Shown piece after piece: positions 3,483 to 52,468 of a DNA stretch of 64,000 nucleotides. The stretch covers positions 8,184,001 through 8,248,000 of the forward strand of contig OX597819.1 in the NCBI GenBank assembly GCA_951406725.2, written 5' to 3'. Position 1 is the first letter of the stretch; each line of letters begins with the position of its first letter. This DNA is from Octopus vulgaris (Eukaryota). Below the pieces are notes generated by a model, which worked only from the letters and a program-made list of their open reading frames with translations, searched no databases and was not told the origin of the DNA. A program made the translations under genes and the position numbers.

Positions 3483-3624
3483 TATATATATATGTGTGTG
3501 TCTGTGTGTGTATAATTCAAAACTACAAATAAAAAAGGAGAAAAGAGAGATAGAGAGAGAGAGAGGGAGAGGCGGGAACAATAAACAAGGTGCATTAGTT
3601 TGACGCATAGGTTAAATGGAAGAA

Positions 3625-3662
3625 CTTTCGACGTTTCGAGCTTACGCACTTCTACAGAAAGG
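3625..3662 (-). ncRNA. Minimal type-I hammerhead-like motif (A6U core variant) in a short non-coding repeat (about 3512-3790)
   Basis: Minus strand reads ccttt-CTGTAGA-A-GTGC gtaa GCTC-GAAA-CG-TC-gaaag. Flanks are homologous to 47660-47745. Confidence 0.55.
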
Positions 3663-4489
3663 AATGAGGAAGGAAACAGATGGAAAGTAAGGGGATGGGG
3701 AGAAAAGAAAAACGTGTCTTGATTTACGGTTACACCTCTTCGATTCGCCGGAGGGAAGAAAGTGGTTGGGGACATTGACGGCAAGAGAGATTATGGTGAT
3801 CTGACTAAAGTGTGTGCGTGCAAGCATGCGTGTGTATGGGAGGATAATGTGCTATGTGTGTGTGTGTGGGGCAAACCCGTGTGTGAGTATGAAGATTATG
3901 TAAGCACGTATATGTATACGTATGGGAGCGCAGATGTGTATGCGCTTGTGTGTCTAAGTGTGTGAGTGAACAAATATGTACGCGTGTGTGTGTGGATTGA
4001 TGTGTACGCGCTTGCTCCGGGTATTTATGTGTGTGTTGTACGTGTGTGTGTGAATATGTTTGAGTGTGTGGTGTATTTGTGTGTGCGGGGCTATCGGATG
4101 TGTGTGTGTGTGTGTGTGTGTGTGTGCTTGTGCGTGACTAATGTGTGTTTCATAATTAGTTACGGTCCACACCTAACTCGACGACCCTATTTTCGTGAGC
4201 AACAAAACAACGGAGGAGCAAATTAGGGGCCTGGCATAATTTACTGCAATCAGTAAGAGACGTAACATTACTTCATAGATCAATAATACAGGTTCCCCGC
4301 CAGTCATTGATTTGTTTTTGAGAATGTAAAACAGAAAACGATTCTCGGTAATCTAACTTGGAATTATCTGACTTTGTTATCTGACCTAGAATAATAGAAA
4401 ACTCTCGTTGATTGCCAATCTGTGTTGCTTAATTACTACTCTAAATACGTGTCTCTTTATACCCTTATTAAATCCTACTTTCCCATGGC

Positions 4490-4890
4490 AACAAGGTAGC
4501 TTTGCAGGGAAGGGAAAATCGATGACATCGATCCCAGTAATTGACTGCTACTTATGTTATCGACTCCGAAAGAATGAAAGGCGAAAATCAACGTTGGTGG
4601 AATTTGAACTCAGACCGTGATGACGGACGAAATACCCATTTCTTTATTACCCACAAGGGGCTAAACACAGAGGGGACAAACAAGGACAGACATAGGTATT
4701 AAGTCGATTACATCGACCCCAGTGCGTAACTGGTACTTAATTTATCGACCCCGAAAGGATGAAAGGCAAAGTCGACCTCGGCGGAATTTGAACTCACAAC
4801 GTAACGCAGACGAAATACCGCTAAGCATTTCGCCCAGCGTGCTAACGTTTCTGCCTGCTCGCCGCGAAGCATTTTGTCCGGTGTTGTACC
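4490..4890 (-). mobile_element. Deu/Nin-domain-like tRNA SINE (family D): a young copy (about 4637-4865) embedded in an older diverged copy
   Basis: Matches the 20354-20584 copy. Carries TTGCCTTTCATCCTTTCGGGGTCGATAAATTAAGTACCAG on the minus strand. Pieces of the old copy lie on both sides (4490-4636 and 4866-4890). Confidence 0.85.
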
Positions 4891-4982
4891 TTAAGTTATA
4901 ATACAAGCAATTTTTTTTTATTAAACTAAAGGATTTTTCCATACTTTTTGTAGAGTATATATCTATTATTCTTCAATAATAG

Positions 4983-5078
4983 TATTGATAGTGATTTCGA
5001 AGTTTTCGCCCGCTAAGCCATCGTTGGATTGTCCAGTGACAGCTTAGCAGGGCCGACACTTAGAAGTCACTATCAATA
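4983..5078. repeat. Imperfect 96-bp palindrome / long hairpin
   Basis: TATTGATAGTGA pairs with TCACTATCAATA, GCTAAGC with GCTTAGC, and CGTTGGA with TCCAGTG around a ttg loop. Confidence 0.85.
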
Positions 5079-6825
5079 GTATGGTGTAGTAAGTAACTAC
5101 ATGTGTGTGTGTGGAGGGGGAAGGAAGAAAGTGGTTATACTTTCCTAGATTTTGTCATAAAACAATGACTACGCTGGGGTGATCCATACATTTCCCTACA
5201 CGCTAACATATGAGCACTCCCAGAATGATGATATGCAGAGGTTCGCCGGTCGGGATTTGAACACCAAATTTAAAGAAACACGATCGAATATTGATTTCAA
5301 AAGTTGGTTTATAAGTATATATGCATGTATGTATGTATGTATGTATGTATGTATGTATGTATGTATGTATGTATGTATGAAAGCAAACACACACACACAC
5401 ATATACATATATATATATATAAATGTGTGTATCTGTGTGTGTGTGTGTATGCATATATGTTTGTATATGTGTGTGTGTATGCACATATATTCATGCATGT
5501 ATAATACACATGTGTAGTTATATGGGCGGGTTTGTGTGAATGGAAGGTTGCTCTTTTAAAGCCTGGCCAATTAAAATCACAACTTCAACGTTATATGTCA
5601 AATGTTCGAGCATTAGGATTTTATAGAGACTTCAGTATTAATATCAGTCACGATATATTCAAAATGCTGCAATATTAGATAACACAATCTTTAAGATAAA
5701 TGTGATTGAAAACTTTTAAAACATGTTTTATAGACGTTTTATGATAAACTTTACACGCTACATCACACACACACACACACACATATCACTCCCGTACGTA
5801 AGTACATATATATGTATGAATGTATGTATATATGTATGCATGTATGTATGTATGTATGTATATATTTACGTATGTATGTATTTATGTAAATGTATATGTA
5901 TGTATGTAAGTATGTATGTATGTGTGTATGTATGTGTATATGTATGTGTATGTATGTAGGTAGATATGTATGTATGTATGTATGTATGTATGTATCTATC
6001 TATCTATCTATCTATCTATCTATCTATCTATCTATCTATCTAACTCTATGTATATTATTATGTGCGTATTATCTTGCCAATAGAGAGAAAGAGCCGGTTT
6101 CTAACCTAGATCCAAAGTTCCTTCATTTGAATTTGAACATCAACAACAGGAAATTTTTGTATGCATGTATGTATGTATGTATGTATTTATGTATGTATGT
6201 ATGTATGTATGTATGTATGTATGTATGTATGTATGTATGTATGTATGTATGTATGTATGTATGTATGTATGTATGTATGTATATATGTATGTATGTATGT
6301 ATGTATGTATGTATGTATGTATATATGTATGTATACCTGCAGATTTGTATGTTTTGCTTTATCGTGTGTAATCTTATGCGTACAGTGGCATATCTGGACA
6401 TGCTCATATATATTTAAATGAAAAACTTCTGGAAAGTTTTACAGATTTTTACAGTTCTAGTGATGAATTGGATCTATAGTCTTCGTATTAAAATGCAAGT
6501 GCATTCAATGCGTGGCGTAATGCGCTGACTTACATTGCTATTATTCAAATTTTATTAGGCAAGAAAGCACGTCTGATGTTCACGGTAAGTGAAGCATTGA
6601 CATGTGAGTCTTAAAAAAAGTTTTTCATGTAAGTCCCTAGTAAGCTATTTTTCTACGGGAAGTGCCAGGTCACGAGAAGTAAATTTTTGCAACTGTTGTG
6701 TAAATTACGTCATTGCAGATTTTCAGTTGAAAGAAAGCTTACTTCTTGATGTTTCCTCTCAAAAAGTATCTCTGTTAATTGCTTCGAAGTGACAAAATTT
6801 AGCCCGTAACGGCTTTCTCTCTCTC

Positions 6826-50460: not shown

Positions 50461-50759
50461 TCTATATATATATATATATATAAAAAGCATTTTACAAATT
50501 GTAACACATACAATACATGGAAACTTTTTGCTATTCTGATTCTGGATAGTAAATTGTTGAAATAGTGTCTTATAAAATTATAGCTAGACGGATAAATAAA
50601 TGAGGTACTGTACGAGATATTAATATTTTTATATTTGAACTCGCATTTATAATGATTTTTATCATATTTTTAATGTTACAGCCAGAATAGTTTCAATAGC
50701 ATTATAGTCCACGGATAAATTAATAGGCCCTCATACATATACAGCTGTTGATTATATAT

Positions 50760-51170
50760 ATTTCTTTAATACCCACAAGGGGCTAAACATAGAGGGGACA
50801 AACAAGGACAGACAAAGGGAGTAAGTTGATTACATCGACCCCAGTGAAAAACTGGTACTTTATTTATCGACCCCGAAAGGATGAAAGGTAAAGTCGACCT
50901 CGGCGGAATTTGAACTCAGGACGTAGCGGCAAACGAAATACCTATTTCTTTACTACTCACAAGGGGCTAAACATAGAGGGGACAAGCAAGGACAGACAAA
51001 GGGAGTAAGTCGATTACATCGACCCTAGTGAGAAACTGGTACTTTATTTATCGACCTCGAAAGGATGAAAGGTGAAGTCGACCTCGGCGGAATTTGAACT
51101 CAGAACGTAACGACAGACGAAATACCGCAAAGCATTTCGCCCGGCGCGCTAACGTCTCTGCCAGCTCGCC
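50760..51170 (-). mobile_element. SINE family D, tandem 1.8-mer with a 15-bp TSD
   Basis: Units at 50943-51170 and 50760-50941; GCTGTTGATTATATA at 50744-50758 and 51171-51185. Confidence 0.88.
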
Positions 51171-51349
51171 GCTGTTGATTATATAGATCAGTATTGGGTC
51201 CCGAGATCCGTGCAGCCTCCTGCAGCCTCGAGCATCACCGGACAACAAGCATAAAGCATAAAATGCCCATGTTCTCGAAAAGACGCTGATTATATTGTGT
51301 ATTTTAATAGAATTAAACGAAGAAATATGAGATAAAATCATATGATATG

Positions 51350-51565
51350 CGAAGGGGTGCTGAAAGGTTCCTGGGTTTAAGGGTATCGCGGAAGACCTGG
51401 TTGGAGGCCCAACTTTCCAAGTTCTTTTAGTGGGCTTAGAAAAACTTAAGGACCGCTGCAAGATGAGTGTGAATCTGATAGGGGAATATGTGGAATAAAG
51501 TCATAATTAACTGATCCGCCCGTATTTTCTTTTACCCACAGTCAGGAACTTTTCAGCACCCCTCG
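51350..51565. mobile_element. Mariner-derived MITE
   Basis: TIRs GGGGTGCTGAAAGGTTCCTG and CAGGAACTTTTCAGCACCCCTCG-TA. Confidence 0.85.
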
Positions 51566-51701
51566 TAATATAATGTAATATAATATGATATGATATAATA
51601 TAATATAATATAATATAATATATTATAATATAATATAATATAATATAATATAATATAATATAATATATTATAATATAATATATATATGTAAAACTGGCCA
51701 T

Positions 51702-52468
51702 AGTCGCAGGAGTGGGTGTGTGGTAAGTAGCTTGCTAACCAACCACATGGTTCCAGGTTCAGTCCCACTGCGTGGCACGTTGGGCAAGTGTCTTCTGCTA
51801 TAGCCCCGGGCCGACCAATGCCTTGTGATTGGATTTGGTAAACGGAAACTGAAAGAAGCCCGTCTATATATATATATATATATATATATATATATATATA
51901 TATATATATATATATATATATATATTTAAAAAAGGAGATGTGGAACACGAGTTGTGATATATAAAAAAGGAAATGAAGAAAATGCTGACAAAATAATTTA
52001 AGTAATTTAAGAGGAAAAAATATATCAGAAGTAACTCTATCTCTCTTAAAAAAACATCTTTTGATAAGCATAACAAATGCGCAACCGGTAAAAAGAACAT
52101 TCACCTAATTAAATTACTTAAATTACTAAATTATTTTGTCAGCATTTTCTTCATTTCCTTTTATTATTATATATATATATATATATATATATATATATAT
52201 ATATATATGTGTGTGTGTGTGTGTGTGTGTGTGTGTGTGTGTGTGTGTGTGTGTGTGTTTGTGTGTCTGTGTTTGTCCCTTTAGCATTGCTTGACAACCG
52301 ATGCTGGTGTGTTTACGTCCCCATCACTTAGCGGTTCGGCAAAAGAGGCCGATAGAATAAGTACTGGGCTTACAAAGAATAAGTTCCGGGGTCGATTTGC
52401 TCGACTAAAGGCGGTGCTCCAGCATGGCCGCAGTCAAATGACTGAAACAAGTAAAAGAGTAAAGAGTA
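51702..52468 (+). mobile_element. SINE family B split by a fold-back insert (51925-52165) in its internal TA tract
   Basis: Halves at 51702-51865 and 52255-52468. Insert arms AAAAGGAAATGAAGAAAATGCTGACAAAATAATTTA and its reverse complement at 52129-52162. Confidence 0.88.

Follow-up and report, generated by a model that had tools for sequence, protein, structure and literature searches.

Minimal hammerhead ribozymes are dispersed in their thousands through individual genomes, where they probably mark truncated Penelope-like elements (PLEs) and in some cases form opposite-strand pairs (Cervera & de la Pena 2014, PMC4209133). PLEs are known for a bias towards (TA)n targets, inverted copies, tails, a Hydra clade and non-autonomous derivatives (Craig et al. 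2021, PMC8557442), and retrozymes of 51-972 bp, many of them monomers, have been described as such derivatives, one of nine dimers being cleaved (Li, Clavereau & Pollet 2026, 10.64898/2026.07.22.740005). The preference for TA, the thousands of scattered minimal hammerheads and the origin of retrozymes as PLE derivatives are published matters (PMC8557442, PMC4209133, PMC7229834, bioRxiv 2026.07.22.740005). For an anole PLE it has been shown in vitro that AT-rich DNA is cut on both strands, each of which is extended, and that the genomic tail is delimited by two start sites of reverse transcription; insertion proceeds without hammerhead cleavage, for which protein is required (Frangieh 2024, PMC11167929). 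Here we consider the hammerhead-bearing inserts of a 64,000-nucleotide stretch of the Octopus vulgaris genome (contig OX597819.1, C6:8184001-8248000, from a 2.8-Gb assembly of 227 contigs), hereafter the window, which is 35% GC and rich in TA, TG and TATG repeats. A recent repeat annotation of an octopus genome lists PLEs and, in the parts of its main text covered, makes no mention of ribozymes (PMC13282606). Our literature search, which had supplements, Dfam and Repbase outside its scope, found no dedicated paper on octopus hammerheads or cephalopod retrozymes; these families may already be listed in paper supplements or in the octopus repeat library.

We consider it highly probable that six of the nine type-I hammerheads in the window sit on 3' stubs of PLEs, and that the other three lie in circularly permuted repeats of 474-529 bp that lack an open reading frame (ORF) and are likely trans-copied non-LTR (long terminal repeat) retrozymes. 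Judged from the DNA, the inserts are a mix of PLE stubs and three new retrozyme families with a PLE insertion signature, the kinds themselves being known. An earlier note, made from the letters of the window, had placed at least nine hammerheads, most with a palindromic or near-palindromic helix III, in about seven mutually unrelated, ORF-less inserts and had inferred that these were non-autonomous ribozyme retroelements. All nine motifs were located and re-read, helix III being palindromic or near-palindromic in 9/9, and seven families (A to G) were found, the motif at 3625 resembling that at 47704 (75%) and the motif at 35889 that at 41620 (81%). The description as ORF-less holds for the window copies and fails for four of the seven families (A, B, E and F); the non-autonomous system survives for C, D and G and falls for the other four, which place six of the nine motifs on the 3' ends of coding PLEs. 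The inserts, with the assignments argued for below, are as follows.

3512..4130, minus strand: family A2, old PLE 3' end and untranslated region (UTR); hammerhead 3625-3661, A6U, extra A before helix II
17066..17238, minus strand: family B, Hydra-type PLE 3' end, truncated at its 5' side; hammerhead 17097-17157, with U4C and an additional pyrimidine ahead of GAAA
21350..21853, plus strand: family C, ORF-less circularly permuted unit of ~474 bp with a short inverted arm at 21350-21369; hammerhead 21627-21725, core broken here
34750..35143, minus strand: family D, 5'-truncated copy of an ORF-less circularly permuted unit of ~492 bp; canonical hammerhead 35008-35065
35648..35876, minus strand: family E, Neptune-type PLE 3' end that carries a fold-back stub; hammerhead 35777-35821, its core canonical and with U.U at 10.1-11.1
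35881..35965, plus strand: family F, Hydra-type PLE 3' end, back to back with E; hammerhead 35895-35932, U4C, A.G at 10.1-11.1
41573..41658, minus strand: older F-type 3' end, 81% to F and 79% to L324; hammerhead 41620-41657, core broken
47612..47795, minus strand: family A, Neptune-type PLE 3' end; hammerhead 47704-47739, A6U core
47797..48479, plus strand: family G, a 529-bp unit without an ORF, present in 1.3 copies; hammerhead 48253-48329, its core canonical and with U.U at 10.1-11.1

On the sequence evidence, the six motifs of families A, B, E and F lie on 5'-truncated 3' ends of protein-coding PLEs of Neptune and Hydra type. Families A, E and F were traced with short unbiased queries, which for E and F left out the fold-back junction. 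In family E, 5/30 loci are continuous with a sense Neptune-type PLE ORF, and the window copy is 99% identical over 213 bp to L285, where an ORF encoding reverse transcriptase (RT) and GIY-YIG endonuclease (EN) lies directly upstream. Two of 30 loci of family A are continuous with a PLE ORF; the window copy matches L341 at 89% and is there continuous with a zinc-finger and GIY-YIG ORF, common to L364. For family F the figure is 1/30, the window copy being 95% identical to L324, where a Hydra-type EN lies 1.2 kb upstream, and L309 sharing 887-1614 of that UTR. Copies of family B are 98-99% identical, and 2/20 loci run 5' through a 0.8-kb UTR into a GIY-YIG ORF (L092/L083) whose frame carries CxCX5C, CxxC and CxH motifs, with a Pfam match (E 0.013) below the cut-off; a weak Ntox35 match on the same protein (E 0.05, below the cut-off) was taken as chance. 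RT and EN stand together in L285, while for A, B and F the EN and linker were seen, the RT core mostly lying beyond the locus ends.

The clade calls rest on motifs rather than phylogeny, the Hydra clade being defined after PMC8557442. Its motifs, a CxCX5C linker with CxxC and CxH round E/N and no CCHH, were read in the B protein, and the C-terminal CxxC/CxH in L324; those of the Neptune clade (A and E), a CX2-5CxxC linker and CCHH in the EN, were read in the translations of L285 and L341. Being continuous with PLE ORFs, A, B, E and F are neither non-coding nor non-autonomous, and they show the hallmarks of EN-bearing PLEs, namely 5' truncation, an inverted copy, a one-sided tail and a (TA)n target, family A doing so without two-armed copies. 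They share with the Neptune and Hydra elements of PMC8557442 a C-terminal GIY-YIG domain, clade linker motifs, (TA)n insertion, partial tandems, an inverted 5'-truncated copy, a one-sided tail and a hammerhead near the 3' end; tails here measure 27-33 nt in Neptune-type and, longer, 62-66 nt in Hydra-type elements, against 30-40 bp there. We rejected the view of E and F as small palindromic elements resembling miniature inverted-repeat transposable elements: the look came from a fold-back junction in the query, and junction-free queries returned variable 5' ends and long copies. Element A2 is 75% identical to family A and 62-67% identical to L272/L274/L276 as far as ~4130. In one of six other loci, L272, a weak RT-like remnant lies upstream on the same strand (tblastn E 3e-10; without a Pfam match). 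The TG/CA-rich DNA to the right of 3830 belongs to the element's own 3' UTR (to ~4130) and is no flank.

The units of families C, D and G measure 474, 492 and 529 bp, are 33-36% GC and carry one type-I hammerhead each; their longest ATG-initiated ORF spans 29-41 amino acids, and no PLE protein match was found in them. They are arranged head to tail: each unit is preceded by its own 3' part, in tandems of up to 2.4 copies, with two full hammerhead units in tandem in C (L076/L424) and D (L372). Mapping onto an autonomous PLE, by which the note had proposed to judge its families, was found for A, B, E and F and in 0/140 loci (duplicates included) of C, D and G, none of which is continuous with a PLE ORF; in 3/140 a sense ORF lies upstream, separated by the ORF element's own end and a TA tract. 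The three families are young (89-97% identity) and abundant, and in our view they are probably non-LTR retrozymes for which a Penelope enzyme does the copying in trans. The genome holds many open PLE frames of 781 amino acids, and helpers therefore exist. A young Neptune-type family with many such frames and a U3-A8 hammerhead, represented by the 3' ends at L251, L252, L263 and L266, is a candidate active helper; L261 bears an A3-U8 version.

Like metazoan non-LTR retrozymes (PMC7229834; 10.64898/2026.07.22.740005), C, D and G are ORF-less, low in GC and equipped with one type-I hammerhead, and occur as tandem copies and dispersed monomers in a genome that also holds PLEs. Unlike them, they are mostly two-armed (TA)n insertions of 1-2.4 units rather than long arrays with target-site duplications, they have no detected homology to a PLE pseudo-LTR (pLTR), and they are known here from DNA alone.

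The insertions leave a common footprint, for which ends were counted after removal of duplicates. The 3' ends adjoin (TA)4 in 313/417 cases and the 5' ends in 53/203, against 3.5% of random positions; the note was right to place PLE-linked hammerheads in TA microsatellites. In all families except A the 3' ends fall at two fixed sites, with spacings of 62 (B), 85 (C), 93 (D), 27 (E), 66 (F) and ~105 nt (G). Among 107 two-armed back-to-back insertions, 85 join a long to a short arm, 3 are long and long, none is short and short, and 19 have an eroded end; the protein-coding families (B, E, F) and the ORF-less ones (C, D, G) have this footprint in common. The predicted cut site is crossed by 330 arms. 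A pile-up of 5' ends at that site was considered and not seen, 3/292 arm starts falling within 3 nt of it (G excluded from both counts). In a single case, which may be chance, the window G copy (47797) begins ~3 nt beyond the cleavage site predicted for the unit upstream of it. No significant alignment of a shared tail motif was obtained among C, D, F and G.

This footprint is like that of the Anolis Poseidon element PAc (PMC11167929) in that two fixed RT starts define the tail, both strands of an AT-rich target are cut and extended, and the hammerhead cut site is not an end of the complementary DNA. PAc is an autonomous Poseidon element, whereas here ORF-less units, whose tails measure 85-105 nt, bear the footprint too, and the long and short ends are divided one per arm. 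We propose that a GIY-YIG endonuclease would nick both strands of a (TA)n tract, as the TA-flanked 3' ends suggest, and that RT would prime from both nicks at two fixed RNA sites 27-105 nt apart, producing long and short back-to-back arms; the footprint is observed, the enzyme step conjectural. The two-start-site reverse transcription of PMC11167929 accounts for the footprint seen here. Copying would usually end early and leave mostly short stubs, which would keep the hammerhead because the motif lies ~100-260 nt from the 3' end. Because arms of C, D and G cross both the predicted cut site and the junction between units, the template of these families is likely to be circular or a multimer left uncut; the putative circle would be made by dimer-dependent self-cleavage and ligation.

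Two type-I descriptors, one strict and one relaxed (genome-sample score of at least 9), were applied to the window and to an unbiased sample of 79 evenly spaced 10-kb pieces (790 kb). With the strict descriptor the window had 2 matches and 30 local dinucleotide shuffles had none, and the sample had 14 matches against 0-1 in 8 shuffles; the relaxed one gave 6 in the window against a shuffle mean of 0.05 (40 shuffles), and 25 in the sample against 0-1. Five of the six relaxed window matches are among the nine motifs (5/9 recovered), and the sixth (40090) is probably a false match in TA-rich sequence. Type-I hammerheads in this genome are thus real and abundant, far above chance, as the note had expected of a comparison with shuffled sequence. 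For motifs that look intact, the strict density of 1 per 56 kb corresponds to about 49,000 (27,000-83,000) motifs genome-wide and the relaxed density of 1 per 32 kb to about 87,000 (56,000-129,000), some tenfold the frog and coelacanth figures of PMC4209133, for which a different descriptor was used. The note's figure of about one per 7 kb was too high because decayed copies were counted, in a motif-rich window. Each of the seven inserts drew 549-4524 first-look candidates, which are not copy numbers; scoring took in the best 40 matches per search, and the best copies are 89-99% identical. Family A is the commonest, with 20 loci in 790 kb.

In the descriptor matches and family alignments three helices surround the core, helix I being open. 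Scored against the canonical core (CUGANGA/GAAA; C3 U4 G5 A6 N7 G8 A9, G12 A13 A14 A15, U16 H17), three of the nine window copies are canonical (35011, 35777, 48253), two carry U4C (17096, 35889), two carry A6U (3625, 47704) and two are broken (21628, 41620), although in family C, to which 21628 belongs, 37/40 copies pass the descriptor. By family, the core is canonical in C, D, E and G, U4C in B and F, and A6U in A, where U occupies core position 6 in 52/62 motifs. U4C, U3-A8, U10.1-U11.1 and A6C are natural hammerhead variants, A6 changes reducing activity (PMC3088659); A6U is not named in the searched text of that source (Perreault 2011). The motifs resemble PLE pLTR hammerheads (PMC4209133) in being type-I, with a palindromic helix III, an extra nucleotide before helix II (family A) and dispersed single motifs, and in their opposite-strand pairs 100-700 bp apart and U3-A8 variant; unlike those, several families lack G10.1-C11.1 (U.U, A.G), carry U4C or A6U, or have long helix II extensions. 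Many more hammerhead families occur at sample loci L162-L240, several of them combining a long helix II extension with U.U, A.A or C.A at 10.1-11.1, and L165, L179 and L233 hold back-to-back hammerhead pairs.

Helix conservation is clearest in family D, where 6/17 pairs changed on both sides (1/500 shuffles had as many) and helices are 96% paired against 26-42% in slid controls; in family C it is weak (2/27 pairs, 230/500 shuffles, helix III palindrome included), and kinship among the sequences inflates both counts. Circular folds of C, D and G reach z scores of -3.1 to -4.9 against shuffles on the sense strand and -1.8 to -4.4 on the antisense strand. Energy folds of monomers and homodimers mostly lack the active hammerhead fold, as expected for such small motifs, and were not used as evidence. 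Rfam hammerhead models gave no match at E≤10 for 34950-35130 and 35740-35960, the two best copies, and the best 150 of 774 matches in an Rfam scan of the window are dominated by microsatellite look-alikes of microRNAs.

Several observations weigh against our reading of six PLE stubs and three retrozymes. The link from ORF to hammerhead in family F is a single copy, over its first 500 bp, and that of A2 to a PLE ORF is a weak remnant; family A has two-armed copies in 0/59 cases. Arms starting at the cut are under-sampled because the queries contained the hammerhead, and the (TA)n tracts at insertions may have grown afterwards. Family G loci came from full-unit queries only, and C, D and G showed no sequence link to the PLE 3' ends compared, a small sample of PLE families. 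The antisense strand of family C is as stable as its sense strand (z -3.2, -4.4). Unit C is partly covered by contigs of three presumed-RNA runs and one run of unknown kind, a coverage that is uninformative on transcription or circles.

The most serious alternative, which we hold to be unlikely, is that tandem copies of C, D and G are transcribed into linear multimers that stay uncut and serve for their spread, with the hammerhead a passenger or structural signal and no circle involved. It would sit well with the indifference of PLE insertion in vitro to hammerhead mutants, uncut RNA being the main substrate (PMC11167929), with A6U in 52 of the 62 motifs of the commonest family here, and with the 8/9 frog retrozyme dimers that were uncleaved (bioRxiv 2026.07.22.740005), yet compensatory changes preserve the helices of D and C, the palindromic helix III included, and coral, mussel and axolotl retrozymes do make circles (PMC7229834). 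We find it very improbable that C, D and G are likewise pLTR stubs of autonomous PLEs whose long copies fall outside the sample: shared ends and TA targets with the coding families speak for this, as do scores that cover the best 40 matches per search and a family G without an unbiased sample, whereas in the loci sampled what lies upstream of the units is always the 3' part of the same unit and never an ORF. Least probable is that all seven families are stand-alone non-autonomous ribozyme retroelements, as the short ORF-less window copies and the mostly short or palindromic copies first returned by full-length queries had suggested, since short unbiased queries yield A, B, E and F copies continuous with RT/GIY-YIG ORFs, which refutes it for those families, and it was the fold-back junction included in the query that made E and F look palindromic.

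Returning to PLE stubs accompanied by trans-copied retrozymes, most small hammerhead inserts in TA repeats would be PLE stubs, which corrects a tempting reading, and only unbiased family searches tell such stubs from true retrozymes. Young, abundant and marked by the PLE two-start footprint, C, D and G offer compact RNA substrates for testing trans-mobilisation by PLE proteins and the role of PLE hammerheads. It is tempting to speculate, with somewhat less than even confidence, that the genome carries 50,000-130,000 hammerheads in dozens of families, among them viroid-like RNA circles of ~500 nt copied by a dimeric Penelope enzyme from two fixed starts at once into both nicked strands of TA repeats, and that the commonest family is fixed for A6U. 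If true, that fixation would amount to a natural experiment on whether cutting by Penelope hammerheads is needed at all.

Two further PLE features lie in the window.

23550..25712, minus strand: decayed Neptune-type PLE ORF (RT, zinc-finger linker, GIY-YIG), in pieces; tblastn to E 2e-27
51925..52167, no strand assigned: tenth element, two-armed Neptune-type PLE 3' end; hammerhead-like motif 52059-52093 on the plus strand, U3-A8 core, GCAA for GAAA

The first confirms the PLE relic reported in the note, its GIY-YIG domain (PF01541) scoring 23.5 bits against a Pfam cut-off of 22.6; the second is 84-99% identical to the 3' ends of the EN-bearing loci L256/L262 and has a tail of ~33 nt. At 35648-35965 (E and F) and 47612-48479 (A and G), arms of different families are joined back to back without a TA spacer. 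Chimeric two-family insertions were rejected as a rule, since distinct junctions of this kind that lack a TA spacer number 3 and those within families 133, and a deletion between two neighbouring insertions fits the E and F junction better than one event because both ends are short. Short TA-flanked inserts with PLE-like pyrimidine-rich 3' ends, in which no hammerhead was called, lie at 35281-35520 (two-armed), 16874-17018 and 35986-36081. Repeat finding in the window was dominated by microsatellites. Very high-copy repeats (>100 matches in 790 kb), probably short interspersed nuclear elements, occupy ~4500-4865, 18146-18937, 20353-20601, 24313-24746, 41753-42168, 46827-47267, 50745-51196 and other places, and 50759-51126 is a tandem pair of 184 bp.

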